Source of the DNA: Candidatus Omnitrophota bacterium
GTDB taxonomy: Bacteria; Omnitrophota; Gorgyraeia; Zapsychrales; Zapsychraceae
DNA: 64,000 bases
Reading direction: 5' to 3'
NCBI GenBank assembly: GCA_050250375.1
Contig: JBFWOS010000002.1
Location: forward strand, 453,149 to 517,148
Under the pieces are notes generated by a model. The model saw only the letters and a list, made by a program, of their open reading frames with translations, was not told where the DNA came from and searched no databases. Position numbers and translations under genes: made by a program. Shown here piece after piece: positions 13,657 through 60,891 of this stretch; position 1 is the stretch's first letter, and the number at the start of each line of letters is the position of its first letter.

Positions 13657-13686
13657 CTTAACGTAACTTCCTTTCTTGTCTGACAC

Positions 13687-13745
13687 AAAGTCACAAGGTC
13701 ACAAGTCACACACTCATGTGTCATGTGACGTGTGTCGTGTGACCT
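13687..13745. promoter_or_regulatory. GTCACA/TGTGAC-rich nested-palindrome element in the iPGM-lysC spacer. Candidate attenuator or operator.
   Basis: The sequence is ...aagtcacaaggtcacaagtcacacactcatgtgtcatgtgacgtgtgtcgtgtgaccttt. It has the same composition as the element at 15593-15655. Confidence 0.4.
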
Positions 13746-28400: not shown

Positions 28401-31400
28401 TATTTCATTAGCGTCACCGAAAACATCTTCAATCAATAACCGTGATCCCCACAGCAACGCGACTTCAGAGGCTTCATCCGCGCGGTAAAAATCCGTGAGT
28501 TCGGCGAAAGAATTAAAATATCTTTTTGTGTACGGGCGTGACGGGTTCGCGTTGAACAGGTTAAACGGCAGGGCCAGTTCTTTGTTGTAAATCATATTTC
28601 TTAATTGGGGGTCCATCGGGCCGGCGGCTGTTTCAATCAGGTCGATGAACCGGCCCCAGTCAATCGAGTTGCCGATCAGATAAATCAGAGTCGCGAAAAA
28701 TCCGTTCGGGTAGTCCAGTTCCAGGCTGTCAACCGGCGCGTTCAGCCAGATCGTGGTGGTGCCGGCTCTGGGTGAAATGGTCAGGTGCTGGCGCAAACGG
28801 TTTGAGCGCTGCGCGAAAAACTGGATCAGGTTGTTTGAATCGTACGGCCGGCCGAAACGGTTTAAGGCCTCGACCATCATGAGGACCATCTGTTCGTCCA
28901 GTTCGGGAGAAATTCCTTTCTTTTTAACAAACTCGTCCCAATTATCCAAAAGCCGTTTCAGGTCCAGCGTATCACCCAGGGCAAAGGCCACAAACGACGG
29001 GTTCACGTGTAATAACCGGCCCAAATACCGGGTGTAATCACCCAGCATTGCTCCGTCGGCGCTGACGAATTCGACCGCGCCCAGCCCGATCGGGATATCT
29101 TCCACTTCATATTGGGCTTTGGAAAACGTGATGAAATAGACGTCTTTGGTCAGGCCGGCGGGTGTCAATAATGTCCCGCGGTTGCCTTCTCCTTTAGAAA
29201 TTATGATATCTGCCTTGTCCCAGGCCCGGACAAAATCCGGGGTGGCCCGGCGCAGGTCGGTCCCTCTGGTCTTGGACCCGCTTGAAATGACCCTGATCTG
29301 TCCGCTCGTTGCGTGTTTCCCAAAATATTGTTTGACTTCATCCAGGTACAATAAGGTCTTAATGTCATCGGCGGTGACATCGTTGTCCGCTTCCACGGCC
29401 TTTCCGACCAGGGTCACGGAGTGCCCGCCTTTGAGGATGAACAGGATCAAAGGCAGGTCATAAATATATTCAATGATGTTGTCAAAGAGATAAACCACAT
29501 TCTTCGGTTCCTTCTCCATCAATTCGGCGACCAGCCGGGACGTATCCCGCTGATGATACAAGATATCTTCATTCAGGTAGGACTGGATATATTCTTCAAG
29601 CGAACGCGGGTCGCCTTCCAGGATCCGTCGACGGAATTCGGTTGAGCTGGTGATGTTCCCCTTAAGAGCGAGTTCGACCGCGCGTAATCCCCTTTCATAC
29701 CCCCCGCGGCTTTGCTCGACATAGGCCTGCAGTTGCGGCAGGAATTCCAGGGCGATATCGAGGGCCTTGGTTTTATAATTCGACATCGGTTCACGCACGT
29801 TCGCCAATTCTTTAATATAGTCGTAGCCGACCTCTTCGATTTCACGCAGGGTCAGCTGGTTCAGACTCTCCCGGGACAGGAAGTTGTCCAGCATTTGGCG
29901 CGCGTTGCCGGCCGGTCTTTTTCCATGCCTGAGCGCGATTTCAAGATAACCCCTTAGATGTTCCTGGACCCTCTTGCGCACCATCGGATCGCCGTATAAA
30001 CGGCGGCCGGGAAGGTAATCACCGGGTTCCTGGACAAAGATCGGGCTGACCGGGTCCGTCCGCAGGAACGCTCGCAAAAATCCGTCATCGTTGTCCGTGG
30101 TGGTATCGGCTTCCATCGCCTGGTCGGCATGAATGATCACCCGGGCCTCGTCTAATAAACGCGTTCGGTCCAGGTAGGTCCGGCCGATCTTTTTTCCATC
30201 CACCTTGACCGAGACCCTCTTGGGGTCGCGTTTGCCGATGTTGAGCAGTCCCTGGACGGTTGTGCCGGGTTCGACAAAATAAACCCGCGCCTCTTTTCGT
30301 TCGTTGGTGATATTGATTTTAAATTTTGTTTTATGGCGGATGTCTTCTTTAATTAACGCAACGACGCGTGTTAACTGCCGGGCGGCCGCGGCATCCGGTG
30401 TCTCTGCGGAAAGGAGCCGGATGGATGTCTGAATTCGTTTCGCGGCGCGGATGAGTCCCGGTTCCACGTGCGCCAGGTCAAAATATTCCTGGTTGAGTTC
30501 CGTTAACAGGTCACGCGCTGAGATGTATTCACCTTCTTTAATTAATAATCCGATGCCTTCGATCCGCTGGGTGATGTCGTCGTCGCGGAATTCCAGGAAC
30601 AGGCTGGTCGCGCTGACCTTCAGGTGAGCGGCGATCCGGTCGATGTCTTTTAAGCGTTTGTCCAGCTGGGCAATGACGCCCTGCAGGTGGGCCTCGGCCC
30701 GTTTAAAATCGTCAGCCTCAATGAGCGTGATCACCGGAGCCAGGTCAATGGTGGCAAAGATTTTAGGGACGACAAATCCCCTGCCTGTCCACTGCTGAAG
30801 TTCACGCAGTTTTTCGATCATCACTTCCCTGTTATGCTGGGACAGGGGTGTTTTGCGTCCGCGTTCTTTGCGCTGGTCGGCTTCTTTTAATTTCTTCGCG
30901 TAATAGGTCAGGTCCGTTTTGTTTTTCAATACGACCATGTACTGCGCCAGTTCCGAAGCGATCTTTTTGACCTGGCCGTCAAACGCCTTGCGCAGTCCCC
31001 GGTACGGCACGTCGCTCCAGACCATCTGTTTGGGAAAATGGATATTCGCGGTCAGGCTTTCCACGCGTGATTTGATGTCGTCTTTGATCTCGCCCGCTTC
31101 CAGTTTTTGTCCCGGGGTCAGCCGGCTGATCACATCTTTTAAATCCTTCAGGTCCTGCGTGATATTTTTGTACCGTTCGAGTGTGACCAGATAATGCAGG
31201 CTGTACAGGCCGGTCAGTTCATCAATTTTTTCCAGCGCCTGGGCAATCTCGCCGCGGTTGGCTTGTAAACGGATCTGGTCAAGCCGGGTGTGCACATTGA
31301 TCGGCCGTTTCTGGCGGACCAGCACGGTCGGTTCATCCTGGCCGTCTTTTTCATCCACATCAATATCAAAAGTTCCGAGCCGGTAGGTCCTGACCCGGTT

Positions 31401-33950
31401 CCCGAGCCAGTCATTGGTCTCAAATGATTTTCGCAATTGTTGTCCGCGCAGCCGCTGGATGCGGTATTCCAGTTCGATCTCAAGGGCATTGGCGCTGTTG
31501 ATCGCACCTTCCAGCGCGTTTAACGCCGGCACCGGATGGCGGATGCCGTCGCGGGAGTTTCCGGTCAGGAGCATTCCGGCAACGAGGATTTGGACCTTGA
31601 TCAACAAGCGTTTGTTGCGGATCGAATCGAGATTCAGACGGCTTAGTTCCGCCTTATTTTTACGGATGTCCGCCAGTTCAATCATGCGCGACAATTTGCG
31701 GCGGTTGTCTTTTAATTCTTTGAGGGCCTGGCTGTAAAATTCGTAAGACTCACCGGAATGGATCTTCACCGGCATGTCGGAATAAAGATTTCTTAACTGG
31801 TTGACCAGCATCTGCTCGCGCAGTTCAACCGCCTGATATTGTTCCGGGGTAGACGCTTCACGGCGTTGGGCGATGATCTGTTCCAGTTCCCCGTACAGGA
31901 TGCCTAACTGCTGGCGGATCTCGATCGAGGCGCGGCGTTCGGTCTCGCGTTCATTCTCTTCGCGTTCCGGGACTTTCCCCCACGCGGGGACCCTGATCTC
32001 CAGCCGGTCTTCCGTTGACATCATGGCCTGGTCCGAGTGGTCGATATTCAGGCTGATCGCGGCCAGCAGGTTTGACAGGCGCATGTGGACCAGTTCCGCC
32101 AGTCCCACCCGCTTGAGCAAATCATTCCCGACGGCATCCGGCAGTTCCAGATAAAACCCGGTGAATTGCCGTTTGATGACGGTCAACTGCGGCGCCTGTT
32201 CAGCCGGCTGCGCGGTTGAATCCGCGCGGAAAAGCGGGACCGTTTTTAATTCCCCGGCAAGATGCTGCTGGATTTCCCGGATTGAATCGACATCCGCGTC
32301 CGCGGCCGGTTCGTCCGGATCGTGTTCCCAGAGCGTGATGACATCCGCGCTGACGGTTTGTCCCCGAGCGTTTAAAAATTCTCCGGATTTGAAGATGTCC
32401 GGTTTATAGGTTTCATCCGCGATGGTGATGCGGTCGATCATTTTTAAAATCCCGTTTAGAAGTGATTTCTTTTTGGCGGAGGATAATAAAGCAGAATCAC
32501 CGCCGGTGGGAAATAATTTTTGTCCGCCGTAAACGACCTCAATGTGGACTTCATTGGCCATGGAATACATGTTGAACTGGCCGAACTGGTCTTTGGTTTT
32601 ATTCCGCAGTTTCCCGGCGACCAGCGTCAGGATGATGTTAAACGCGGTGTCGTGCGGGAATTGGGCCAGCAGTTCACTCCGGAAAAAGACTTTGATATTC
32701 TTGGCCGGGTCCTCTGAGGCGATCTTTCTGGCCGCCTCAATGTGAAATTCCAGATCATCTTCGTTGACGAAAATGGCCTGGTCCGCGCTCTGCAGTCCGG
32801 CATAAGTTGAGACCGTTTTAAATTCTCTGGTCGCGGCGGCTTTCTGTAGGGCGTCGGTCAAGCCGGTCTCGAGTTTTTTCTCCGACAGCTGGGCCATGTC
32901 CACCCCGCCCGAAAAGTACCGGCGAGGAATCGTCTCGTGGCTGACCGCGTCAATATCTTCTTTAATGTAATCAAACACGCCGCGTTTGAAGGCCGCGATG
33001 TACTGGTTATAAATTTTTTCCTTGATATCTTTTTCCGCGAGGTCAACCCCGCTGATCTTGTTCTGGTCGACATAAATCCGGCCGAGCACGCTCTCTTTCA
33101 GGTTCTTCTTGTACCACGCGGCGAGGATCAGGGAATGGAACATCTGGCGCAGCGGGGCGAAATTTTTTCCTTCATTGATTTCCCGTTCGATTTCCGGGAT
33201 CAGGACCTCCCGGACAATATCACTGTTAACGCCGGTGCGGATCGTTTCATCCGTTGCGGCCGGCGCGTCCATGGCGGAATGGTGTTCCAAAGCGAGGTAA
33301 TCTTCTTCCAGCATGACTTTAAGGTGGCTGTCGGAAACAAAGACATGGTTGTCGTTGACAAAGACTTTGGCCCGTTCCGGCACAATCCAAATTTTATTAA
33401 AGGTGTTGAGCGGGATATCGGTGGTCCCGAATTGGCTCTGTGCTTTGCGGTAGACACGGTCCCAGAATTTTTTTCCCAGTTCGTCTTCCGGATAAAGCAT
33501 TGAGGCGCTGAGCTGTTTTAACAGGTAATCCTGCGCGAGCATGTCCCGGCCCATCGCGGTCTGGCTGAGCGGCTGGGCGATGATGCGGTCTTTTTCATAA
33601 GGCGAAAGGTTGACCCACATCTGGTCTTCCGGCACGGTCAGCGCGGCAAAGAAATAATTGATCAGTTTTTGGGATTCAGTCCTGAAGGCCTCTCCGGCCA
33701 GGCGGTCATCCCCGGTATCAATGAGGAAATCCACGTTTAAAGGATCGGCTGTGTCAATGCGCATCCCCGTGATAATCGCGGGGGTAAAGACGGCGCTGGT
33801 CTGGACCATCAGCCCGGGCTGGGGCAAAAGCACCATCTGGGCATAGGCCAGCTGCGGGGCGATCATGTTCAGGCAGAAACACACGATCACGGACCAGATC
33901 ACGCACCGGCGGCTTAAACGTTCAAGAGTTTGTTTGAATGGTTTACTCAT
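19485..33950 (-). CDS. Giant secreted multidomain protein (4821 aa): signal peptide, shared N-terminal module, DUF89-like domain, two ~900-aa tandem units each carrying a Glu/Leu/Phe/Val-dehydrogenase-like domain, and a shared C-terminal module
   Basis: A single uninterrupted ORF with an ATG start, a signal peptide ending ...LAYAQ and no internal stops over 14.4 kb. The domain calls rest on motifs: PYAGAKTV versus GGAKGG, NAD-binding [36 protein letters not shown], and the DUF89-like SKGEGNRG. Confidence 0.85.
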   Translation of the reverse strand: [4821 protein letters not shown]

Positions 33951-39197: not shown

Positions 39198-39464
39198 CAG
39201 TCGGCCTCCTTGCCGTGTTTTAAAGGGGACATTTTTTCGTAAATGCGCTATTTTGTTATACTTCGAATTGCGGGACTATACAACGGTTAAATCAGAAAAC
39301 TGGCGGCAGGAAAATTGCATAACTTAACAAGATACAAGAAACAAACAAATTCCAATGAACAAGTTTCAAACAAAAAATATTGGTTTGGTTTTTGGGATTT
39401 GGTTATTTTTTGATATTTGTGTCTTGTCTTTAGTAACTTTCTCTATTGATTAAGTCCGATTGTT

Positions 39465-40091
39465 TTATGCCCCCGGATCAGAACTTAATAAGTTTTCATA
39501 TGTGTCATTATGAACAACCTTTTCATTCGATTCTTTTAGGCTTTTATAATACTTCAGGGCTTCTTTTTGATCAAATGCAGTAGAATTTTCATTTGAATAA
39601 TAAGAGAATAAATCATTTGCTGCGAACGTACAGCCGTTTTTAAAAGCTTGGTTAAACCAATAGATCATTTTTTCTTGATCGTGCGGGACTCCTTTAGCGC
39701 ATTGATAACAAAGGCCTAACCAACGCATAGCCTTTTCATCTCCCTTGTCCGCATCCCGCATAAAAAGATCAAAGGCTTTTTTGTAGTAGCTGTTTGATAA
39801 GTTGTTATCTTTTGTTGAGTTTTTAATATTATTCGATTCGAGTGAAGGATCATATATCAGGCCAAGAAAATAATGGGCTTCGGCAAAGTCTTGGGCTGAA
39901 CTTCTTTCAAACCAGAGAAGGGCTATTGAAATGTCTGGAGAAACACCATTCCCAACTAAGTAGGCCTCACCGATCACGAATTGAGCTTTGGGGTTCCCTT
40001 CCTCTGCAAATGGTAAAATGATTGAGAGGGACTCCTTAAATTTATTTTCTGCATATAATTTAAAACCGTCTTGGAATGAAGGAGTATTCAT
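39465..40091 (-). CDS. Sel1-like repeat protein
   Basis: Repeated AxxxxGxxYxxGxGVxxD Sel1 motifs (e.g. AQFVIGEAYLVGNGVSPD, AMRWLGLCYQCAKGVPHD). Confidence 0.7.
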   Translation of the reverse strand: MNTPSFQDGFKLYAENKFKESLSIILPFAEEGNPKAQFVIGEAYLVGNGVSPDISIALLWFERSSAQDFAEAHYFLGLIYDPSLESNNIKNSTKDNNLSNSYYKKAFDLFMRDADKGDEKAMRWLGLCYQCAKGVPHDQEKMIYWFNQAFKNGCTFAANDLFSYYSNENSTAFDQKEALKYYKSLKESNEKVVHNDTYENLLSSDPGA

Positions 40092-40189
40092 ATTGTTTTA
40101 TCTCAGTTCCAGATCCACCAACGCTCCATCCACAGGCTTTGTTGAGACGCCGGACTTGGTGTGCAGGTCTTTAATGGCCTTTTGACAAT

Positions 40190-41086
40190 TTAGTCGACTC
40201 CGGTGCCACTTAATCTTTTCAACTCAATATGGGCAAATTGTTTGTCTTCATCATTACATGCCAAATCGATACAAATTTTCTGATACATTTCAATTGCTTT
40301 TGGCACTTCATTATTTGCTACATACGCAAAAGCTAAATTAAAATATGCATCAATATAATCAGATTGTAAATTAATTACCTTTTTAAAAAAAATTATCGCT
40401 GTCTTATAATCTGCATTTTCATATGAACATAAACCCATGTTAAAATTCGCTTCTACATGATTTGAGTTTTTTTCTAAGATATGGTGAAGATATTTTTCTG
40501 CTGTTTCAAATTTTTTAATTCCAATATATATTTTAGCTAACCCAATGTACGAATTGTAATTGTCAGCAGAAATCGTTATAGATTCTTTATAGTCATTTAT
40601 TGCAGCATCATAATTATAAGTACAATAATTTGACCAAGCTCTATTGGAATAAGCCATAGAATTATTAGGGTCTATCTCGATGGCTTTGGTGTAATCCTTT
40701 AAACTTTTGTCATATAATTTTAACTTAGAATATGTTAAACCCCGATTGATGTAGGAATTGACATGCTGAGGACTGAGCTCTAGGGCTTTCGTATAATCTG
40801 AAATAGCTTCATCAAAAGAATTAATTATTCTATAAACGTTTGCCCGATTATAGAATGCTTCATAAAAAGGCACACTAATTCTTATTGAACTTGTATAATC
40901 TGCGATTGCTTTTTCATATTCTTCTAGATCAGCATAAGAGTTTCCACGATTATAGTATATATCCCCATTGCTGGCATCAATCTCAAGAGCCTTGGTATAG
41001 TATGTAATGGCTTTAACATGACACCCATTAATGCGGTAATTATGAGCTTCTTCACAATATTTTTCGATTAGTTCTTCAGAATTCAT
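40190..41086 (-). CDS. Tetratricopeptide (TPR) repeat protein
   Basis: About 8 tandem 34-aa repeats of the form AIxxYxKAIEIDPNNxxAYxNRG. Confidence 0.75.
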   Translation of the reverse strand: MNSEELIEKYCEEAHNYRINGCHVKAITYYTKALEIDASNGDIYYNRGNSYADLEEYEKAIADYTSSIRISVPFYEAFYNRANVYRIINSFDEAISDYTKALELSPQHVNSYINRGLTYSKLKLYDKSLKDYTKAIEIDPNNSMAYSNRAWSNYCTYNYDAAINDYKESITISADNYNSYIGLAKIYIGIKKFETAEKYLHHILEKNSNHVEANFNMGLCSYENADYKTAIIFFKKVINLQSDYIDAYFNLAFAYVANNEVPKAIEMYQKICIDLACNDEDKQFAHIELKRLSGTGVD

Positions 41087-41127
41087 AGTTACAATTTATC
41101 TTTTAATGGCCTTATTTTTTTGTAAAG

Positions 41128-41190
41128 TTCCGGGGACACGTGCTTAATTATTGCGCGACTATTTTTCTAATTGGGTACGTGTCCCCGGAA
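41128..41190. repeat. Perfect 14-bp inverted repeat TTCCGGGGACACGT ... ACGTGTCCCCGGAA with a 35-nt spacer and a following T-run on the + strand
   Basis: Read directly from the sequence. It lies between the 75-aa ORF and the TPR gene. Confidence 0.5.
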
Positions 41191-41201
41191 TTCCACTTTT
41201 T

Positions 41202-41429
41202 TCAAACATTAATTTCATACTTCCGTGACAGCGCGTCGCCATTCACGGCATTGAGAAACGCTTTGAGTTTTTTGTTGGGGATATTGATTTCGGTCACTTT
41301 GTCGTGCGTGGCGTCTTCGAAGATGATGTTGATGCACCGCTTCCCCTGTTCATCCGGGTAATGTTTGACATACATCCGGAACTCACTCCCGAATTCGCTC
41401 CATTCGATGATTTCGTTTAATTTGGACAT
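41202..41429 (-). CDS. Hypothetical small protein (75 aa)
   Basis: An ATG-start ORF with plausible, non-repetitive composition. No family recognised. Confidence 0.35.
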   Translation of the reverse strand: MSKLNEIIEWSEFGSEFRMYVKHYPDEQGKRCINIIFEDATHDKVTEINIPNKKLKAFLNAVNGDALSRKYEINV

Positions 41430-41521
41430 CTTTATTGCCCTTTCTAATATTCATCTTTAAGGGGTTTTGTCTTTGAGGTTCTTTCAAATTAGCGCGCTGT
41501 TCCGTATCTTTTAATAATAAA

Positions 41522-42469
41522 CTATTTTGGCGTACATCGTTTAAAACGAAATGCGATCTCTTCAATGATAATTTCTAACGTATCACTGTCAATGACTCTA
41601 TACTTTGGGTCATTTTCGATTGTTGAATTGGGTAAATAAAAGCCTTCTTCAAAACATCCACTAGGACCACAAAAAATGACAGAATATTTACTATCCTCAG
41701 ATCTATTGATGGCAATTCCAAAATCATGCGAGCAATCCGTCTTCCAGAAACCAATGTAGGGGTGTTTTTTTTTCCATTTAAGAGTAGTTGTAATAGTCTC
41801 TGAGTTTTCATGAAAGCCTACCTCACCGCGTGCCAATCGACCGTTCATGATTTTCTTTTGAGAAACAATTTTTCCGGTCTCATCATATTCACTTAATACG
41901 CCGGTATATTCACCATTTTGTTTAGAAATAAGAGCGCCATTTTTATCATATTCTTCAAAGTTAGTGAGTTTTAATTTTTTAATATCAAATTTCCTGAATA
42001 ATTTTCCATTTGGATGATATTCTTTTCTATATCCATCTCCATAATAGTAAGAGGATTCATATTTTAATGTACCGTCCAAGAAATATCTCCAAACTCGTTG
42101 AGTTTTACGATCAGGCATTCCATTCTCAAAATTATGCTCATGCTGTAATGTGCCGTCTTTATTAAATTTTTGAACGAGCCCTTCAACGATATCATCTTTA
42201 TAATTATATGTTTGTTCCAAGTTACCATTGGCCGTATATTGTTTCAGTGTGCCTTGTTTTTTTCCGTCAACATACATAACTTCTTGATACAAGTTTCCAT
42301 TTTCATGATACCTTTTTGATGGGCCATGTCTCTTGCCGTCTTTATAAGTTCGTTCGTACTGCATTTGACCGTTCGGAAAGAATTCTTTACGAATCTCGGT
42401 TTCTTGGGCGTGAACGGTTACTTGTAGTAGCAAAGCCCAAAAAAATGTGGTAAATAGTATTTTTTTCAC
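41522..42469 (-). CDS. MORN-repeat / YwqK-like repeat lipoprotein-like secreted protein
   Basis: It has a signal peptide and repeated YxxGKxxGxxxxYxxNGxL units. Confidence 0.6.
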   Translation of the reverse strand: MKKILFTTFFWALLLQVTVHAQETEIRKEFFPNGQMQYERTYKDGKRHGPSKRYHENGNLYQEVMYVDGKKQGTLKQYTANGNLEQTYNYKDDIVEGLVQKFNKDGTLQHEHNFENGMPDRKTQRVWRYFLDGTLKYESSYYYGDGYRKEYHPNGKLFRKFDIKKLKLTNFEEYDKNGALISKQNGEYTGVLSEYDETGKIVSQKKIMNGRLARGEVGFHENSETITTTLKWKKKHPYIGFWKTDCSHDFGIAINRSEDSKYSVIFCGPSGCFEEGFYLPNSTIENDPKYRVIDSDTLEIIIEEIAFRFKRCTPK

Positions 42470-42562
42470 TCTAACCTTCTATGGATTTTTATGGTGGTGT
42501 ATTTTTTATAGTCTTGATTATACGACCAATCGCGGATAATTCCTAGTCTGATTTCACGGGTT

Positions 42563-42700
42563 TTAACGCGCCAGGGTGAGTTTGGGGGCGGCGGGGATTT
42601 TTTCGTTTGGTCCGGCATGGCCCAGGATAAACGGCATTAAAGGAACGGGTTTGAAGTCGATGATGACCTCAAGAGTCAGACCTCTTCGACTTTTCCCAAG
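42563..42700 (-). pseudogene. Orphan 3'-terminal fragment of a giant-protein gene. It encodes only the shared C-terminal module (...[36 protein letters not shown]).
   Basis: 42563-42662 is about 90% identical at the nucleotide level to the last ~100 nt (43041-43140) of the 2429-aa gene. The protein motif PVIIDIRPV -> EVIIDFKPV is retained further upstream, but there is no N-terminal body. Confidence 0.6.
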
Positions 42701-43001
42701 TGGAATATAAAAGGGCTGGAAAAAAAGCCATTTGTTCTTCACGAAAAGACTCCTGAATAAATCTTTCATTCAGTTTCTTAAGTAATTCTTCTTTCGTTAA
42801 ATCAGGATGGCGGCGTTTTATTTCTCCGGAGACGCGCGAACGCGCCAGATCATGCAGTTCAAATGCCAACTGGATTCTTTGGTAGGGTTTAAGCCGGCGC
42901 AGGTATTGACGCTGCTGAGTGCTTGATTCGTGTCTATCCATAAATACCTCTACGTGTTTAACTGATAAACCTATAATACTGTCTTTTTCTGTTTTAGACA
43001 A
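42669..43001 (-). CDS. Hypothetical small charged protein (110 aa)
   Basis: An ATG-start ORF lying between the 2429-aa gene and the orphan fragment, and overlapping the fragment in another frame. No family recognised. Confidence 0.35.
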   Translation of the reverse strand: MSKTEKDSIIGLSVKHVEVFMDRHESSTQQRQYLRRLKPYQRIQLAFELHDLARSRVSGEIKRRHPDLTKEELLKKLNERFIQESFREEQMAFFPALLYSTWEKSKRSDS

Positions 43002-43040: not shown

Positions 43041-46000
43041 CTATCGCGCCAGGGTAAGTTTGGGGGCGGCGGGGGTTTCTTCGTTTGGTCCGGCATGGCC
43101 CAGGATAAACGGCAGGTACAGGACGGGGCGGATGTCGATGATGACCGGGAAGTATCCGCCGATGTGCATGAGTTCCAGCGGCTGTTCCTGGATGGGCAGC
43201 GGGATGCCGAAGTCATCACGTTTGATCTGTAAATCCAGCCAGCGCGGGTTTAAGTCGATCCCCCCCACGGACTTGATCGTCTGTTCTTCGGCGGACATCA
43301 TGTGGTCCTTTTTGGGATCGGACGTCCGGACGTGGGCCAGGACTTCCGGGTTGAGGACATTTTCCGGGATCTTGCCGTCAATCAGGCGCCTGAGGTTCAG
43401 CATGGCGCGCGCGATCTTGAATTGCCTGACCTTCCAGACGGCGGCGGCCGTGTGGCCGGACAGTTTGACATTGGTGAGCTGTTCCCCCTCATCGTTGACA
43501 AACCGGCGCTGGCTTTCCCCTTCGTCGTTTAAGACGTCCAGCCGGATCTGAACGCCGGGGTGTTCGATGGCGTAATGGATCAGCGCGTTTTCATCCACCT
43601 GGAATTTGCTCGCGTTGATCAGGACGCGCACCGGGCCTTCTGCGTCCAGACCGAATTGCTGCAGGGCCTCTTCGTTCACCCATTCGACATTGCGCTGTTT
43701 GGAGGAATCGTCCAGGGTGGTGACAATATTACTGCGCCGGAAGAAATCCATTTTGTCGGCGTAGGCCGGCGCTTTCATGCCGGGCCCGTACACCTTGCGG
43801 CGGTTGTCGGCGATCTGGCTGAACGCGTCATGTTTGGCCTCCAGGTCGCGGGTGTCCATGCTTTCGGTATCAATCAGGAGATTAACGCCGAAGGCCAGCG
43901 CCCGTTTCGCCAGGGCTGTCCCGATGCGCCGGATGCCGTGCACGCCGAACGTCTGACGGGCGAGGCCCGTCTGAAGGACGTTGCTATCCTTAATAAAAAT
44001 CTGGTCCGCGTCAATCACGACCCCTTTGACCTTTTCCTTGTCCCGCAGGCTTTTGTAGGCCTTGTCCGACGGTGTTTTCAGGATATAATCGGACGACCGC
44101 ACCAGTTCCGATTCCTCCACGAGTTTTAAATTGATCGAGATCCCTTTGATCTCGGAGTTTTTTATGATCGTCTGGATCAGGTCCTGGATCCGCCGGCGTG
44201 TGGATTCGCTCAGTTGTTCATATTCTTTGCGCAACACATAAATGGTGGCGGCCTGGTGGATGACGGCGGTTTCCAGCAGGTTGACCCCGGCGGTCTGCAG
44301 TCCCAGGATCCCGATCGTGGTGTGGATGCCGGCTTCGTCGTTCTGCCCGATCTGGTCGTGGTAAACGGTTGAATCGGGCGACACGCCGGTCTTGGCGTAT
44401 TTTCCGGAGCGGCCGAATTCAAACATCTCGTCCAGTTTCAGGGCTTTTTTGAGCAGCATGTACCACATGATGTGGGCCGCGTTGAGGCGTTCTTCGTTTG
44501 TCTTGGGCTTGACGCCCGAGAGTTTGACCGAGCCGGGTGTTTGTTCGAAGGAGACAAGCTGTCCGTAAACGCCGTCTAACGCCAGGGCGATATTCTGTTC
44601 GGCCACGGCGATGGTCGTCGGGCCGGGCGCGGTCGTGACCACGGTCTGGTGGCGGGTCGCCGCGTCCAGGTCGATATTGTGTTCGGCCGTGGCAAATAAG
44701 ACCAGGCCTTTCAGGTCGGCCTTTTCAAAGAAGGCGTCGTCAAAGCGGGTGTTGCAGTAACCCACGCAGAAGTCGTAGTCTTTCTGCGAGACGATCTGTC
44801 CGACGTTCGGGTCAATCCCGGCGATCAGACGCCCGTCTTTCTCAACGACCTCGGACTCGCTGCCGATGATGTCAAAATTGATATCGGAGAAATTGTCGCG
44901 CAGGGCCTCGATCATGTCCGGGTTGAGCGGTTCGACGACAAGAACGTTTGTCTTCCCCCTCTGCGAGGTCATCCGTTTAAATTTGAGTCCGGCCAGGGTG
45001 ACGTCGGTTTCTTTGTGGTACAGCACGTGGCCGTTTAAGATATTATGCGGGACCTGGAAGTTCATCAGCCGTTCCAGATTGTCCAGGGCGCGCTGAACTT
45101 TAAGCCGGCGGACCTGCGGAACGGCGGCGGCGGTGTGGCCGGCCACTTTGATATTGGGCAGCGGATTGTTCGACGCGTCCCTGAAGCGCTGGTGGGCGTC
45201 GCCTTTTTCTTCCTGGTTCACCACGTCCAGGCGGACTTCGACGTCCGGACGGTCCCGTAAATAATGCAGCAAGGCCTCTTCATCGATCAGGTTTTTGACC
45301 TGGCTGACAATGGCGCGCACGTCGCCCTTGGCGGACACGCCGAATTGTTCCAGTTTTTCGGCGTCAATCCACGATTCCGTTTCCGTGGTTAAAGGTGTTA
45401 AGGTCGTAATGATATTGCTCTGCTGCATGAAATGATCAAGGTCAACAAAAACGGCCCTTTGCTGTTCCGGGCCAGCGTCCCGCAGCATGAAAAATGACAG
45501 GCTGTTGAGGAAGTCGATTTTTTCCGTATACATCGGACGGGTGGATTCCCTTTGGTTGATCAGGGCGGTCGCGCGCAGGGCGATCACCCGCTGGGCCACG
45601 GCCTTTCCGATGCGTCCCAGCCCCTGTATCCCGACTTTCAAACCGGCCAACGAAAGTGAAAGCGTGGCCGGGTCTTTGATAAAAATGGTCTGCGGGTCGA
45701 CGTCGATCGGGTGCGCGTCCAGGAAATCACTTAAAGTCCTGTTCTGCCGGGCGGCCGGGGTGGCGATGGTGTAATCGGACACTTCCACCAGCACTTCTTT
45801 GGGCAGCGGTTTGATGGAGATTTTCATATCGTATTTACGTTTATTTTCTTCCATCGTTTTGATGAGGGATTGAAACCGCTCTTTGGCGGTTTCGTCCAGA
45901 TTTTTGTATTCATCTTCATCAACATAAATGGTGGATAATTCATGGGTGATGGCCATCTCGATGAGCCGTTCACCGACGGAATCAAGGCCCAGGATCCCCA

Positions 46001-49000
46001 GGCTGGTGTGGATGTCGGCCTCTTTGTTCTGCCCGAGCTGGTCGTGGTAGACGGTGGCCTGCGCGCCCACACCCGTGCGCACGTAACGTCCCTTGGTGGC
46101 GAAGGTGAACATTTCATTGAGTTTGAGCGACTGCTGCAGGAGCCGGTACCAGATGATCTGCGCTTGGGCATCGGGGTCCGCGCCGGTTTCCCGGACCAGA
46201 TCCGTCATGCGGCCGGTGGCCAATGTTTCTTCGGACAAGACCTTGCCCGCGTAAATGGAATCCAGCATCAGGCCGATATTTTGTTCCGCGACGGCCACGG
46301 TGGTCGGGCCCGGGGCGTTGGTCACAACGATGTCGTTGCGGCTGGCCGCGTCCAGGTCGATGTTATGAACGCCGGTGGAAAACAGGATCAGTCCCTTAAT
46401 TTCGGATGTGTCAAAGAATTCTTGGTCAAAGGTCTCGTTCACGTACCCGAGGACATAGTCGTAATGTTTGGCCTTGACCAGATCTTTGAGTTTGCCGCGC
46501 ACGCCGGGGATCCAGTTGGCCGTGTCGTCTTCGACAATCTCGGAGTCCGGCTGGATGATGTCGAAGTCCACATTCCCCATCTTTTTATGCAGCATGGAAA
46601 TGATGTCCGGGCCGATGGGTTCAACAACAAGAATGCGCGCCCGCGGATTGGGGACTTTTAAGACCAGGAATTTGAGGCCGTGCATGGTTGTCTCTGTGAC
46701 TTCGAGTTTCGGCCCGCTGACCATCCGATCAATTGTGTCATCGGTGTGCGGGATCCCCATCGAGGTCAAGACCTTGGCGATCCGGTGGCTGGACAGGCGG
46801 TACTGGTTCGGATAAGGAAAAATGTCCGGCAGCTGATTGGTGTCCATGCGCCATTTTACGGAATTCCAGAAATCCGGCTGAAACAAATCGCCGTGGATTC
46901 TTGTAAATTCTTTCTGGAATATTAACGGGATTTTCAGTTCCGCGAACAGTAAACCCGGATACACCCGGAAACGGTTTTTGCTGTCTTCCCTGGCCGGCAG
47001 TGTGACGACCGGCGGCTGGACCTTGCGGTAACTGGGGGCTGTGCGGAATTCTGTTTCTTCAATGCGGCCCAGGCCGGCATTGTTCATATAAACGACCCGG
47101 CCCCAGGACGTGATCCCGAAATGCCTCAGCGACATGTCTAAAGGGAAAATCCCCATCGACGCCAAATGTTTGATGTTCCAGCCGATTTTAATCAGGATAT
47201 CCAGCTGGGCGGCCGCATCGCTCTGGGCCCAAATGTCGGCAACCGGCGTGATATGCCGCTGCGCGAACATATTGATAAATGTGATGTGCGTTTCATCCAC
47301 AAAAATATCGGCGCCGGCCTCGCGTTTGAGCAGATCGACCAGTTCCGGGTCTACCATCGAAATGGGAAAACGCACATTCGAATACGCCCAGGAATCCAGC
47401 AGCTGCCCGTGCCGGTTTGATTTATGGATATCGCGGTAGGTATCCACGATATGCCCCCGGTTGGGTGCGTTATCCCTGATCACTTTAATGACGATGGGTG
47501 ATCCGGGTACCGCCATGGTGATCGACTGGTCCCCGTCCCCCAGATATTGAAGCCTGTTTCCGCTTTGTTCCATTTGTTCGTACAGTTCACCGAGATAGAT
47601 TTGCTGGGAACGCTGCGTGAGCCCGACTAGGTCGTAAATCTGCGCGAGGCTGACTTCCGGGAAAATGTCGGCGATGAAACGGATGACCTCCGGAAAATCC
47701 GGCGCGTTGATCATGAACGACGAACGGGTCGAGGACAGCAAAAGGTTTTTTGAGGTTAAATAATCGGTGACGACCGCGTCGATGACGACGCCGTTGTTCG
47801 GGTGTTTCAGCGCGATGATCAGCGGCACCGGTTTGTCATTGGTCAGAAAACGGCCGACCACGTACGCGGCCTTGTTGCGGTAAAACAGGGGTTTAAGGAC
47901 TTCAATCCCTTTGATCTCGACGTCCGCAGGCAGATGGGACAGCTGTTCCTCCAGCATCGCCGCGGTGATTTCGATATCCGTATCAGGGGTTTCGTACAAA
48001 TCCCGCAGGTCAAAGTCGTTGAGGATGGCCTGCACCGTCTCGCGCAGCGCCTGCGGTCCCTGGTACGGGTGCTGATGAATGACCTTGTCCGCAGGTGTCC
48101 GGATCCCGGAAACGGGTGTTGTCTTGTAATCTTTACGTAAAGGAAAATATGTCAGCCGGCTCATGACGGAATCCAGGAAACTTAACAGCAGGTCCTGTTT
48201 GTAATAGTCCTCCTGCGTTTCATAGTTGTGGCGAAGCATTGTGCGGATTTCGTCCCAGATGTGGACGTCGTCGATATATTCGCCCAGGATCATGCCGATG
48301 ATCTGGGTGGTCTGGTTGCTGATGCTTTCCTGCATTTCAAGCCGCATCTGTGAATAAATCAGGTTGCCGCGCCAGTCTTTATCACGGAAGAAAATCCGGG
48401 CCTTGTCCGTGGTCCGTTTAAAATGCAGGTAATATTCTTCAAAGCTGTGCTGGAATTCCGTGACGGCGGCGTTGAGGGTGGTCTCGTACGGTCCGGCCCG
48501 GTAATCCAGGATTGTTTTTTTGCTGTAATCGGCGCGATGGCGCAGGATAAATTTAAACATCTGTTGGCGCTGGTCATCGGTCAGATCATTCTGCGCGCTT
48601 AAGGAAGATTGGTTCCAGTCGCTGGGCGTGATGGTGTTGTACGCGCCGAACACAAAATGGACATGTTCGGTTTTATCCGGATTGTCGATGAACCATTCCA
48701 TTTCCCGGGCGAGTTCGTCGCGTTGCGGATGCGAAAACAAGTCGCGCGGCACCAGGACAAAGACCGGTTTGTCTTCGGTCGCGCGGGACGTGACGGCTTC
48801 CAGCAGTTTTTCGGCCGGGACATTGTCTTCCGTAAAAAATTCCTGGAAGCTCTCCTGCCAGGTGGACAGGCCGGAGACGGCGGCCAGCGCGGGATAACTG
48901 TGCTGCCAGGTGTCGAACCCGAGCAGGTACCCCCCTTCATATCCGGACAGCGGGATCCGGTCGATGAAATCATAAACGGTCATGGCTTTTTGGCGGATCA

Positions 49001-50330
49001 TCTCAAATCCGTCAAGATTGGTCCCGTAGAATTCGTTTCTCAAATTCCGCAACTCTTCCGTTAGGTTCACCGGATGCAGGATTTTGATTTGTTTCCTCGC
49101 GATCATCTGGCGCAGGGTGTCGTCTGATAAAGGTGCTGCCTCGTCTTCGCCGGACAACATGGCGGTGTCCGCGTTGGCCCCGATGTCGTATAAATCGGCG
49201 GTGACCTTAAAGAGCCGGGTATTCTGCGCGGAGTAATCATTAAGCATGGCCTGGTCCCCGGGGGTCAATGCGGCCGGGTCGCCGGTCAGGACGCGTAAAT
49301 TCCGCTGCTGGACGGGAAGCAGCCCGCCGGAAAAATATTGCCGGGGTAACACCTTGTGACTGACCGGGTCGACGTCTTCTCGGATAAAATTATACACCCC
49401 CACTGTAAAGGCCTTCATATACTGCTCATAGATTTTAGCGTTGAGCGTTTCATCCGCCGAGTCAATGCCCCGGATTTTATTGCGGTTCACATACGTCTGG
49501 GCCAGCAGGCTTTTTTTCAGCGTCATTTTATACCAGGTGGCAAGGATCATGGCGTGATACATCTGGCGCAGCGGGGCAAATGTCTTGCCGTTGTTCACTT
49601 CCTTTTCAATTTCCGGGATGATGTGTTCCCGGATCAGGCCGGTCAAACGCTGGTCGTCTTTGACGGCTGATTCATCCGTCGGCCGGGCGGCATCCAGGTA
49701 ATCCTTTTCCAGCATGACGGTCAGGTGGCTTTGGATCACGTAAGCGCCCTGGGTGTGTTCGTACACCACCGCGTTGTCCGGAACGATCCAGATTTTATGC
49801 AGGAAATCATTAATATCCATTTCCGGCGCATTGGTCTCTTTCAGCGCTTTGGACCAGAAGGTCCGGCCGGGCTCCTGGTCGGGATGCAGGAGCGACGCCG
49901 TTAATTGTTTCAATAAATAGTCCTGGCTTAACAAATCCCGCCCCATCCCGGTCCGGCCCAGCCCTTCGGCCACCATCCGGTTTTGTTCGTGGGGTGATAA
50001 ATTGACCCACATTTCATCTTCGGGGACGGTTAAGGACGCTAAAAAATATTTGATCAGCCGGGCGGATTCATCCTGGAATTCGGCGCGGCCGTAGGGGTCG
50101 CCGCCGGCCTTGATCATAAAATCAAAACGCAAAGGGTGTTCGGGGTTAAGGATGATGCCGGTCAGCAGGGCGGGTGTGTAATTTTCCGTCGGTGTGATCA
50201 GGGTTCCGGGCACGGGCAGGTGGCTGGTCTGGGCAAGAAGTACAGACGGCGCCGCGAGTTGTATTAAGAAGACAAACGCGGTGGCGCAAACCAGGGCTTT
50301 AAATCCGAATTGTCGCGAAGAACGTGCCAT
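43041..50330 (-). CDS. Giant secreted multidomain protein (2429 aa): signal peptide, shared N-terminal module, full-length AceK-like isocitrate dehydrogenase kinase/phosphatase homolog, two tandem D-isomer-specific 2-hydroxyacid-dehydrogenase-like units, and the shared C-terminal module
   Basis: An ATG start with signal peptide ...SVLLAQ. The AceK-like segments include [16 protein letters not shown]..., [21 protein letters not shown] and [10 protein letters not shown]. The 2-Hacid_dh motifs are [33 protein letters not shown] and GHTAAAV, each present twice. Confidence 0.85.
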   Translation of the reverse strand: [2429 protein letters not shown]

Positions 50331-57213: not shown

Positions 57214-60200
57214 TTAAGGGGTATAGGCGCTTAAGGTTAAAATGCCCGTGTCGTCTTCCTTAATATACGGGGATTGGCTGCGGATGGAGATTTCCGGATT
57301 GTCCTCATCCTGCGCCGGATCGGCGATTCCCAGCAGGAGCGGGAGATTATTCACGGGGATGATCTGGAAGATCACCGGGGCAAAACCGTCCAGGGGCATG
57401 GATTCCAGTTCCCGCAAAATGAGCGGATCCAGCGGAACGGTCATGTTGATCCCCTTCCCTCTTTTTTCGATAATCAAATCGGCCGGGTTAAGATCGATCC
57501 CCCCGACCCTTTCGCTGGTGGCGGTTGGAGTCACATCTTCCGCTACGATTTGCGGCGGGATATCCGTTGCGGCGACGACCGCCGGCGTTTCGATGTCTGT
57601 GACCGGCGATACAGTAGTTCCGGCCGGCAATTCAGTCCCTCTCAAATCGTTCTGGTATTTCGTGTACAGGGTCGGCAAATCCGTTTCAAAATTAAAGCGG
57701 TAACTGCTGCGCATGCGGACATCGTCATCGGGATCTTCCTGAACGTTCCAGACGCTGGCGCCGATGGCTTTATAAAAATTCTGCTGGCGGGTGACCGCCG
57801 GTCTATTCCAGAAATTATAGGACCACCAGGCGGATGTCACATTCCCCTGGGTTTTTTCGGCGATGTTGGTAAATGTCCGGTGGAGCAGCCAGCTGGCGGC
57901 CTGTGTTCCCTGGAATTCCGGGGCAACCACAAAATCACTCATGTAAACGGCATTGCCGTTGCCGTTATATTGGACGATGGCATAACCGACCGGTTCATTG
58001 TTCGTATCCAGCAGGACAAAACTGTAATCATCCATATTGCTGCGGTTTTCGATGGGGTTTAAACGGAAGCGCATGATCTGCCCGTTTAAAACCCGGTATT
58101 TCTGGTTGCTCAACAGCATTTCTTTGGTCAGCGGCGCGATGCGGATTTGCTGATTATTAATCGTCTGGACATCGGCCAGGACCGCGTTGTCGCTTTGCCC
58201 TAAAGCCGTCTGGTCCAGTCCGGCGATTGCCTGGTTTAAGTCGTTGCTCAGGTCCTCCATGCTTTCATAATTTTCATTCGGATTGGCGAACAGGGCCTTT
58301 TCAACGATCGCCCAGATACTGGCCGGCATGTCATTCTGAGGTGTCCCGTCAAAAGTCGTTGTTCCTCTGAATTCCGCGGGATTAACCGGCGCGAGGGTCA
58401 TGGTCTCTTTATTCAGCATTGCATCGTTAATCGTGGCCCTGGCCCGGGAAAATGTATTGAGCAGGATTTCTCCGATGACGATCATATCCCGGTACTTGAT
58501 GCCGGCCTGCAGAGACCTGACGTCGGTCTTGTCGAGGTCCATTTTTAAGGTGTCCCAATCGATCAGGCGCGGACGGCCGGTTGTTTCATCAATGATAATA
58601 TTTTCCGTATGGAGATCCCCGTGAAACGCCCCGTACGTCGTGGAGATGTAAGCGATTTCCCGGGCGACCTCCGCCAGAATCCTTAATCGTTCCCCCCGGT
58701 CAGTGACGGCATCAAAATGGGTGCCGCGGATGAATTGCATTTCGATCATATTCGGTTGCAGCGAAATATTGTCTTCCAGATTGGCGTTGGGCATGGCGAC
58801 GAATTGTTTGACCCGTTCGTCATTACGGACGGCCAGAAAGAATTCAAGCAGGCTGATTTTATCCATTGAGATAATATTGTCTAACAAAAACTGGCTGAAA
58901 AATTTGATGGCCAGCGGTTCGCTTTCCGTCCCGTCCGCCCTGATCTCCACGCCACGGAATACCGGCTTGAGCAGGTCCGCGGCAATAATTTCCTCCAGCC
59001 GGTAATCTTTTCCTTTAACCCGGATGACCACCGGGCGCCGGTCAACGATGACCTGTTTTAATTCGTCCAGCAGCTGCTGGGAGCGGTCCCCGAAGAAATC
59101 ATCCACATTGATCTCGACCTGTTCACCGGTTGATGCCAGGACAGCATTGTCGGATGTGGCCAGACGCACGCCGGCCTCAAAAAACGGCAGGGCGTTCGCC
59201 GCGTCGTACTGCTGAACAACAATCTGCTGACTGAGCGCGGTATCGTTGGTGATCTCAACCGTTGTCCGGGTGCCGGTCACTCCGTCCTCTTCGGTTGCCT
59301 GACGCGCGGCCGGGCTGACGGCCCGCCCGTTCAGGTCCGATAAAACCGTCGGAGCTGAATCAATGTACACCCGCAAAAGGCTCTGGTATTGTCTGAGGAA
59401 TTCATTCCGTTGCCGGTTGTCCCGGCTGACGTCTGCCAGCCGCTGGCGGACCTGTTCGAGAAAACGCGCGATCGGCGCCTCAATCGGACGGGTTTCACCC
59501 GGGGTGTCTCCGGTTAAATCACTGATCAGTGTCTGCAGCGCGCCTGTCAGGAAACTGTAATTCCGGCGCTGGAATTCCCTGAATTCTTCTTCGACAAAAC
59601 GTTCGGACACGCCTAATGTGTCGGGATCAACGCGGGATGAATCCTGGTTGACGATGCCGGAACGCAGACCGCCGGTCACCGGGTCAACCCCGCTTTCCAC
59701 CATGAACGTGACGCCTTTGGGCTGAACAGGCCGGGTCAATTCACGGACGACCCGCAGATTGTTATTATCGAGCGACCCGAACTGCAGTTCCATCCCACCG
59801 GAAAAATATTTACGCGGGATCAGTTCCTGGGAGACGGGATCAAATTCTTCCTTGATGTAATTGTAGACGCCGACCTTGAACGCCTCGAGGTATTGATCGT
59901 AAATTTTCTGTTTGATTTCCTTGTCAGCCACATCAACCCCGCCGGTCTTGCTCTGGTCCAGGTAAATCCGTCCCAGCAGGCTCTCTTTCAGGTTGCGTTT
60001 GAACCAGGTCGCCAGGATCATGGAATGGTAGACCTGGCGCAGGGTGGCGAAATGTTTGCCTTCGTTGACTTCTTTTTCGATGGCCGGGATCAGGATCTCC
60101 CGGATGATCTCGGCCGTCACGGTCCTTTGTTCCCGCGTCTGTTCATCGGTAGCGGCTTCGGATTGTTTGAGATTTTTATTCTGGTCGAATTCGGTGTGGG

Positions 60201-60891
60201 CGATGTAATCCTGTTCCAGCATGACCTTCAGTTTGCTTTCGACCACAAAGGCCGTGTCGCCGTTTTCATAAACCACCGCGTTGTCCGGGACGATCCAGAC
60301 TTTGATGAACGTATCCAGCTGGAGTTCGGCGGAACCGTATTTCCGGACGATTTTCTGCCGGACATCGTTCCAGAAATGTTCCCCCAGCTTATCTTCCGGG
60401 TACATCATGGAGGCCGTCAATTGTTTGAGCACATAGTCCTGGGCCAGCAGGTCGCGCCCCATTTCCGTGACGCCGAATTTGTCCGGGATGATCCGCTGTT
60501 TTTCAAAAGGCGACAAATTGACCCACAGGTCTTTTTCCGGAATGGTTAATGAGGCCAGAAAATATTTGATGAGCCGGTTGGACTCTTCATACAAAAAGGA
60601 ATCCACGGTCTTTTCATCCCCTGTTTCCAGGATAAAATCAAAACGCAGCGGATTGTTGGGATAAATGCGCAGTCCCTTGATCAGGGTCGGATTGTAGAGA
60701 TTGCTGGTCTTGACCATCTGTCCCGGGGTGGTCAGGTGGAGCGCAGACAACCATGGTTGCGGTCCCGGCCGTTCTTGCGCGTAAGTATATTGAGCCGGCA
60801 CAGTCAGGCCAAAACCGATCATGAAAATGATCAGCGCTGTTACCAGGCGTGAGCCTCTGGATGATTGCCGTTTTTGTAGCCACTGAAACAT
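57214..60891 (-). CDS. Giant secreted multidomain protein (1225 aa): signal peptide, shared N-terminal module, RIO/Kdo/APH-type protein-kinase-like domain, GNAT acetyltransferase-like domain, and the shared C-terminal module
   Basis: An ATG start with signal peptide ...QYTYAQ. The kinase catalytic-loop and metal-binding motifs are [14 protein letters not shown] and LIDWD. The GNAT motif is [17 protein letters not shown]. The C-terminal module is GGIDLNP...[17 protein letters not shown]. Confidence 0.85.
   Translation of the reverse strand: [1225 protein letters not shown]

Follow-up and report, generated by a model that had tools for sequence, protein, structure and literature searches.

Phosphorylation of isocitrate dehydrogenase by AceK, the textbook first case of bacterial protein phosphorylation, controls the glyoxylate shunt, and ordinary 2-hydroxyacid dehydrogenases specific for the D isomer (2-HADHs), the second family of concern here, are dimers. 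The 2-HADH active site holds a catalytic triad (Arg230/Glu259/His277) in which the arginine, positioned by Asn227 and Gly231, is the most conserved residue because only its guanidinium group binds the substrate through two atoms; the substrate carboxylate is bound by a Val-Gly pair (PMC6303947). In AceK, Asn462, Asp475, and Asp477 ligate the catalytic metals, phosphatase activity is abolished by D457A and D477A, and D477A also abolishes Mg/Mn binding (PMC6591243). Here we describe a protein in which homologues of both enzymes are joined. It is encoded by a 2429-aa open reading frame (ORF; 43041..50330, minus strand) in a 64,000-nucleotide stretch of a Candidatus Omnitrophota genome (contig JBFWOS010000002.1, positions 453,149 to 517,148), hereafter the window, whose numbering we use throughout. 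An AceK-like domain is followed in this protein by two 2-HADH-like units, both of which have lost the catalytic arginine. The ORF is unbroken across 7.3 kb and is identical to P0001, from a Candidatus Omnitrophota metagenome-assembled genome (MAG) at NCBI; all of its features given below lie on the minus strand. We take it to be an uncommon variant of a known enzyme family, one that has apparently not been described and whose partnership is both conserved and suggestive; its function is something that we infer.

The tandem duplication is real. A self-BLAST of the full 2429-aa protein returned the identity match only; when the units were then compared directly, unit 1 (residues 1229-1776, 45003..46646) and unit 2 (residues 1793-2337, 43320..44954; family profile boundaries in both cases) proved to share 224/547 identities (41%) and 62% positives with 4 gap positions (BLASTP, E=7e-150), a similarity far above chance. 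Each unit, scanned alone, exceeds the Pfam gathering cut-offs of both 2-HADH models (PF00389 and PF02826; 25.1 bits for 2-Hacid_dh_C and 24.6 bits for 2-Hacid_dh), unit 1 with 68.6 and 45.9 bits, respectively, and unit 2 with 36.4 and 35.9 bits. The catalytic-domain signatures are present verbatim (NAPGPTTVAVAEQNIGLML at residues 1338-1356 and TAPGPTTIAVAEQNIALAL at 1900-1918), as are the AGHTAAAV and SGHTAAAV boxes, and both sequence models and fold give the 2-HADH superfamily layout, a catalytic domain split by a Rossmann domain that binds nicotinamide adenine dinucleotide (phosphate), NAD(P). An AlphaFold2 (AF2) model of unit 1 made from a 10-sequence alignment (predicted local distance difference test [pLDDT] 81.9, predicted template modeling score [pTM] 0.85) has as its top Foldseek PDB matches the glyoxylate/hydroxypyruvate reductases 5aov, 6bii, and 2dbq (E ~1e-17, target TM 0.72-0.80). 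Glyoxylate reductase is likewise the best NCBIfam match of the units; the equivalog cut-offs of NF009714 and NF011938 are missed (118.3 vs 455 bits and 69.9 vs 492, respectively). These GRHPR/GhrB-type reductases, the best structural and sequence match, share with the units the two-domain fold, the order of motifs (signature, GxGxxG, LDV..E, xH), and the His and Glu of the triad. The window units differ from them in being ~219 residues longer, in carrying a half-Rossmann insertion, in having Lys for Arg together with a one-residue deletion, and in lying in tandem in one chain. On BLASTP identity, Pfam scores, and fold matches, then, these are real 2-HADH-like duplicates, just as the initial annotation had proposed for 43358-46658 (residues 1225-2325 of the ORF), and the large insertions that it deduced from the length of the units are there too.

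The extra length, ~219 residues per unit in an alignment to nine canonical enzymes of ~320 aa, falls into a few blocks. A 42-aa insertion follows the AVAEQN helix, after the catalytic-domain signature (residues 1357-1398, 46137..46262, in unit 1; residues 1919-1960, 44451..44576, in unit 2), and a 132-aa insertion occupies the loop that leads from the inter-domain helices to strand one of the NAD domain (residues 1422-1553, 45672..46067, and residues 1984-2115, 43986..44381). A further 19 aa lie past the second Rossmann strand, and several short pieces make up the rest. A foreign domain was considered as the source of the 132-aa insertion and rejected, as the insertion matches no separate Pfam family and aligns to the first half of the unit's own NAD domain (hhalign profile-profile probability 96.9%, E=1.9e-10); it is therefore not foreign. 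At the level of this alignment it is shown to repeat, in part, the first half of the Rossmann domain. In the AF2 model of unit 1 it takes the form of strand-helix-strand repeats, and it contains a degenerate glycine motif, GILGLDSVG, in unit 1 (GILGLQTAG in unit 2). The most conserved motifs of the family, Y-V-R-T-G and A-T-V-Y-H-D-Q-L/I-G-Q, open this insertion in a low-confidence stretch of the model (46026-46088 in unit 1, with ATVYHDQLGQN; 44340-44402 in unit 2, with STVYHDQIGQN). An alignment of 33 units, which come from at least three phyla, has 78 columns with conservation of 94% or more. SerA offers another case of a 2-HADH core with extra domains, and in it a basic residue of the partner's alphaB'-betaA' loop enters the active site (PMC6303947), but its extra ACT/ASB domains are C-terminal rather than inserted in a loop, and its catalytic Arg is kept.

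At the active site, Lys replaces the catalytic Arg in both window units (K1679, 45294..45296, in unit 1; K2242, 43605..43607, in unit 2), and the other two members of the triad are retained: Glu as E1707 (45210-45212) and E2270 (43521-43523), His as H1732 of GHTAAAV (45135..45137) and H2293 (43452..43454). The canonical loop N-T-A-R-G-P reads S-Q-V-K-N in unit 1, which thus also lacks the supporting Asn, and N-A-S-K-F in unit 2, one residue shorter in each case; an Asn-anchored alignment puts the Lys exactly in the Arg position, and the loop holds no Arg. We surveyed the same residues in 33 tandem units from 17 proteins (that of the window, four database proteins, and 12 genome loci). The Arg position is occupied by Lys in 30, Gly in two, Gln in one, and Arg in none, and His and Glu are retained in 33/33. 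Arg-Gly is retained by all ten single-unit long relatives and all nine canonical enzymes. Since the loss of Arg is common to every tandem unit, it is an old feature of the clade and not the decay of one copy.

The two copies do differ elsewhere. The dinucleotide-binding motif GIQGLGRIG of unit 1 (residues 1567-1575, 45606..45632) has GxGxxG intact, whereas in GVHGIRRIG of unit 2 (residues 2129-2137, 43920..43946) the second Gly is Arg (R2134). GxGxxG is intact in 31/33 tandem units, the exceptions being the GIRRIG of unit 2 in two Omnitrophota-type proteins, and unit 2 of the remaining 15 proteins has it as GLGRIG or GFGRIG. The position equivalent to Gly73, the substrate-carboxylate glycine, holds Gly in each unit 1 of the 17 proteins and Ala in each unit 2 (S-T-G and A-T-A, respectively, in the window). 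GIRRIG is thus a recent lineage-specific change on top of an old Gly/Ala asymmetry, and the conservation of that asymmetry makes some division of labor between the copies plausible. The initial annotation had read GLGRIG and GIRRIG correctly, but the contrast that it implied, of a canonical first unit with a degenerate second, is not borne out by the survey, and of the Arg-Glu-His triad that it named, the Arg fails in both units.

The upstream AceK-like domain, to which the initial annotation had not linked the units, is the main clue to their function. Residues 628-1174 match both the regulatory domain of AceK (residues 628-923, 47562..48449; PF20423, 1.8e-45) and its kinase domain (residues 938-1174, 46809..47519; PF06315, 5.8e-37). 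This part of the protein aligns over the full length of PDB 4p69 (E. coli AceK) at E=2.8e-40, and the NCBIfam NF002804 equivalog cut-off is missed (295.6 vs 488 bits). The likeness to E. coli AceK (3eps, 3lc6, 4p69), at E ~1e-40 across both domains, does not extend to the catalytic center, which is degenerate. In a residue alignment to the E. coli reference (L020), K949 (=K336) and D1065 (=D457) are kept, but H1070 stands for N462, N1083 for D475, and A1085 for D477, and the glycine-rich loop is different; AceK is, moreover, not fused to dehydrogenase-like units. Among 41 stand-alone AceK homologues of 500-630 aa used as controls, D457, N462, D475, and D477 are present in 41/41 and K336 in 40/41. 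In the fused or related AceK-like domains, N462 is replaced in 9/9, and each of these is also altered at D457, D475, or D477. As the metal ligands are kept by all 41 stand-alone proteins, whereas N462 and at least one of D457, D475, and D477 are lost in all nine fused or related domains, catalytic impairment specific to the fused clade is predicted, and the AceK-like domain is predicted to be pseudokinase/pseudophosphatase-like.

The family that combines AceK with tandem units is rare and apparently undescribed. A profile search of 1.84 billion cluster representatives gave only 19 matches at E<=1e-30, of which five are tandem (one a fragment) and the others single long units. Every complete tandem relative in this search also has AceK domains, which precede the units in P0001 and P0241 and follow them in P0242 and P0243. 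The two proteins of reversed order begin with hydrophobic signal-like N-termini. The single long units sit in other large multidomain proteins, two of them directly followed by glycerate-kinase domains (DUF4147+MOFRL). These single-unit long 2-HADHs (P0244-P0247, P0251, P0253-P0255, P0257, and P0260) share the 42-aa and ~130-aa insertions and the T-V-x-H-D/N-Q-L motif with the tandem units, but they keep Arg-Gly, occur as a single copy, and have no AceK fusion. In a neighbor-joining tree all tandem units group in a single clade whose sister group is the single-unit forms, and unit 1 orthologues are slightly closer to one another than to unit 2, so that the duplication predates the spread of the gene. 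By this tree, the duplication is older than the spread into Omnitrophota, Proteobacteria, and Planctomycetota.

When one genome of each GTDB species was scanned, 15 tandem loci emerged, in Desulfopila sp. IMCC35006 (orthologue WP_136814176.1), Desulforhopalus, other Desulfobulbales, Gammaproteobacteria MAGs, one Planctomycetota MAG, and a second Omnitrophota-type MAG. Automatic public annotations call these proteins "AceK regulatory subunit," "bifunctional isocitrate dehydrogenase kinase/phosphatase," or "hypothetical," and such database names are probably misleading. Our literature searches found no paper naming both AceK and 2-hydroxyacid dehydrogenase, and nothing relevant on AceK and pseudokinases.

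The proteobacterial fusion genes, like aceK in the E. coli aceBAK cluster, adjoin genes for malate synthase and isocitrate lyase. An isocitrate lyase gene adjoins the fusion gene in 13 distinct proteobacterial loci, usually within 0.2-2 kb, and a malate synthase gene lies beside the lyase in 12 of the 13 by tblastn; at the thirteenth (L002/L018) tblastn finds the lyase only and gene calling gives split malate-synthase genes. One locus (L005) is too short to judge, neither gene is seen at the Planctomycetota locus (L016), and the 20-kb contig of the reversed-order P0242 has no shunt genes. Other neighbors of the fusion gene vary between loci. A truly split fusion gene in L001-L003, L017, and L018 was considered, but the apparent splitting was judged to be an assembly-frameshift artifact, since 11 other loci carry the gene as a single unbroken ORF (L005-L016 minus L009, where it is cut by the contig end). 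In some of L001, L002/L018, L003, and L017 the malate synthase gene is also frameshift-split, probably through assembly errors. In one Desulforhopalus chromosome (L008), a 490-aa protein with an N-terminal HTH_3 domain (13340-14812 of that locus, minus strand) lies between the fusion gene and the malate synthase and isocitrate lyase genes and may be a local transcription regulator of the cluster.

In the window protein the AceK-plus-tandem cassette lies between two further modules. The N-terminal one (residues 1-400, 49131..50330) opens with a hydrophobic, signal-peptide-like start, MARSSRQFGFKALVCATAFVFLIQLAAPSVLLAQ, and the C-terminal one, of ~85 aa, reads GGIDLNP...PFILGHAG... (residues 2346-2429, 43044..43295). 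The N-terminal module is common to more than 1000 large proteins, all of those with a named source being Omnitrophota/Omnitrophica, and is 38-53% identical to the modules of the large proteins listed. The middles of these proteins include phosphoglucose isomerase, phosphoglucomutase, phosphoglycerate kinase, phosphoenolpyruvate (PEP) carboxykinase, isocitrate lyase, malate synthase, and acyl-CoA dehydrogenase. The N- and C-terminal modules co-occur, at the expected ends, in 118/119 top homologues, a "bookend" architecture, and neither has a match in Pfam, NCBIfam, or PDB sequences. Glycolytic-enzyme domains have been noted in giant Omnitrophota proteins, whose localization was left unsure (preprint 10.1101/2023.11.21.568195), and beyond that remark we found no description of this family of modules in the literature. 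The proteobacterial fusion proteins have neither module, and the AceK-plus-tandem cassette is therefore the older entity. P0003 (1923 aa, from an Omnitrophica MAG) joins the N-terminal module to an AceK-like domain that is more degenerate still, with Glu for K336 and Asn for D457, and lacks 2-HADH units, so the pseudo-AceK domain is evidently reused in other fusions.

Because Arg is lost in both units, the AceK partner is crippled, and glyoxylate-shunt genes are adjacent, the units have the look of a component of some undescribed metabolic regulator and not of an ordinary enzyme. The reading that we tentatively prefer, while giving it somewhat less than an even chance, is that they are mainly an NAD(P)(H)/2-oxoacid-binding sensing module of a non-phosphorylating regulator of the glyoxylate shunt, a function that we infer from residues and gene context. 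In such a regulator the two units would pack as an intramolecular pseudo-dimer, by likeness to the dimers of ordinary 2-HADHs, and would bind NAD(P)(H) and a small 2-oxo or 2-hydroxy acid of the glyoxylate node, turning over little or nothing. They would relay redox or metabolite state to the AceK-like domain, which would bind, and not phosphorylate, a target at the branch point between the tricarboxylic acid cycle and the glyoxylate shunt. In Omnitrophota the cassette would have been placed between the bookend modules of the phylum, which might serve in anchoring or targeting. The occurrence of the AceK/tandem fusion in both domain orders (P0241 vs P0242 and P0243) supports this reading. Precedents exist in CtBP, an NAD(H)-dependent regulator in whose 2-HADH fold a conformational change is thought to drive regulation, and in plant ANGUSTIFOLIA (AN), which is without catalytic residues (PMC6303947). 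The likeness to CtBP is in the proposed working principle only, as CtBP is eukaryotic and has the full Arg-Glu-His triad, and neither protein has a specific sequence relationship to the units or a kinase-like fusion.

Several points weigh against a sensing role. The AF2 model of the tandem has a pLDDT of 79.5 yet a pTM of 0.52, so that the pseudo-dimer is unsupported by prediction, and neither the window nor the Omnitrophota-type locus L004 has an isocitrate lyase or malate synthase gene nearby. The target of the AceK-like domain would plausibly be isocitrate dehydrogenase, which is a guess. If the signal-peptide-like N-terminus means that the protein is exported, NAD(P)H sensing makes little sense. 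In the AceK-like domain, the His and Asn that have taken the place of metal ligands could, in principle, themselves coordinate a metal. Lastly, the conserved Lys (30/33), the invariant His-Glu pair, and the new Arg of YVRTG fit an active, remodeled enzyme at least as well.

This last point leads to the alternative that survives best, namely that the units are still working dehydrogenases with a rebuilt site. Lys would stand in for Arg, the guanidinium would come from the YVRTG position (R1418, 46077..46079, at the start of the big insertion in unit 1; its counterpart K1980, 44391-44393, in unit 2), and the units would form an obligate pseudo-dimer, the site of each being completed by its partner, with a substrate of the glyoxylate node such as glyoxylate or hydroxypyruvate. 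We regard this as a serious possibility, albeit a doubtful one. In its favor, His and Glu (33/33), GxGxxG (31/33), and Lys (30/33) are conserved, and the YVRTG position, which is Arg in 31/33 and Lys in 2/33 tandem units, is mostly Gly in the ten relatives that have the canonical Arg, so that it may hold a relocated arginine. The motif lies, furthermore, in the alphaB'-betaA' loop, through which, in ordinary dimers, the partner subunit enters the active site and, in SerA types, supplies an extra Arg/Lys (PMC6303947). The sister single-unit forms fused to glycerate-kinase domains are what one would expect of hydroxypyruvate reductases, and the best NCBIfam match, to glyoxylate reductase, points the same way. 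Against this, no characterized 2-HADH has Lys in the Arg position (PMC6303947). P0242 has Gln and Gly there in its two units, and a basic residue is therefore not required; unit 2 of P0243 likewise has Gly. Every unit 2 has Ala at the substrate-carboxylate glycine, and GxGxxG is broken in unit 2 of the Omnitrophota proteins. The anticorrelation between the canonical Arg and YVRTG stems from a single evolutionary split, and the fused AceK-like partner is itself catalytically degenerate.

The sensing role that we prefer can also be carried to its full extent, as a branch-point regulator made wholly from ex-enzymes, in which a kinase-dead AceK would bind its dehydrogenase target without phosphorylating it, steered by an Arg-less intramolecular 2-HADH pseudo-dimer that reads a shunt metabolite along with NAD(P)H. 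The AceK phosphorylation switch would then have a non-covalent counterpart; in this complete form we think the idea rather unlikely. The carriers of such a proposed regulator are Desulfobulbales, some Gammaproteobacteria, a Planctomycetota MAG, and Omnitrophota.

An explanation along the lines of the initial annotation, with unit 1 as an ordinary working 2-HADH and unit 2 as a copy in decay that has taken on a secondary structural role, fares considerably worse. The contrast of GLGRIG and the substrate Gly in unit 1 with GIRRIG and Ala in unit 2 would fit it, as would the lower Pfam scores of unit 2. Unit 1, however, also lacks the catalytic Arg and the supporting Asn (SQVKN). Unit 2 is 56% identical between the two Omnitrophota-type proteins, compared with 61% for unit 1, which is not the behavior of a decaying sequence, and its GxGxxG, His, and Glu are intact in 15 other genomes. 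We consider this explanation improbable. The idea that the cassette is an inert relic or a purely structural spacer in a large Omnitrophota scaffold protein, to which the absence of canonical catalytic residues from both halves and the very diverse "cargo" domains of proteins with the N- and C-terminal modules would lend themselves, is very improbable indeed in view of the 78 conserved columns over 33 units and at least three phyla, the conserved fusion and shunt-gene neighborhood, and the intact 7.3-kb ORF.

Among the remaining features of the gene, a conserved hairpin motif, GLKFLVLKV, lies ahead of unit 1 (46653-46685), and the same hairpin motif, as GLKFKRM, lies ahead of unit 2 (44967-44999). 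Plus-strand ORFs overlapping the tandem-unit region have no match in Pfam, and the region has none in Rfam. The neighbors of the gene in the window (MORN, TPR, and Sel1 repeat proteins, a solute-binding protein, a histidine kinase, a DUF1016/nuclease protein, and glycerol-3-phosphate dehydrogenase) are not informative. The N-terminal module occurs twice more in the window, at 32754-33914 (minus strand) in a 4821-aa ORF and at 59746-60738 (minus strand) in a 1225-aa ORF. The 4821-aa ORF (19485-33950, minus strand) has an ARMT1-like damage-control phosphatase domain and two Glu/Leu/Phe/Val-dehydrogenase stretches, and is mostly without a Pfam match.

The big gene has its 3' end duplicated by a direct repeat of 105 nt, whose copies at 42564-42668 and 43042-43146 are 87% identical. 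The lower copy closes a 68-aa ORF (42563-42769) whose tail repeats ...PFILGHAGPNE.IPAAPKLTLAR, and a 110-aa ORF (42669-43001) in the space between the two copies encodes an Rv0078B-related antitoxin domain. The repeat, together with the ORF between its copies, suggests an insertion next to the end of the gene. Further downstream, ~39400-42500 is low in GC (34.5% over 40001-42000 vs ~53% elsewhere) and encodes MORN-repeat, TPR, and Sel1-repeat proteins; this stretch just downstream of the big gene may be a foreign island.

What sets this family apart is an AceK homologue without its metal ligands that is permanently fused to two Arg-less dehydrogenase-like units, in an arrangement that sulfate-reducing bacteria and others conserve next to their genes for isocitrate lyase and malate synthase. 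One carrier, Desulfopila sp. IMCC35006, has the record of a named strain and not of a MAG; it may therefore be culturable, and the question of function would then be open to test. Should the units prove active, no 2-HADH before them would have been shown to function without the canonical Arg, possibly with an Arg from the partner unit. If the protein is a regulator, it would constitute a second, non-phosphorylating control of the glyoxylate branch point and a bacterial example of paired pseudoenzymes.

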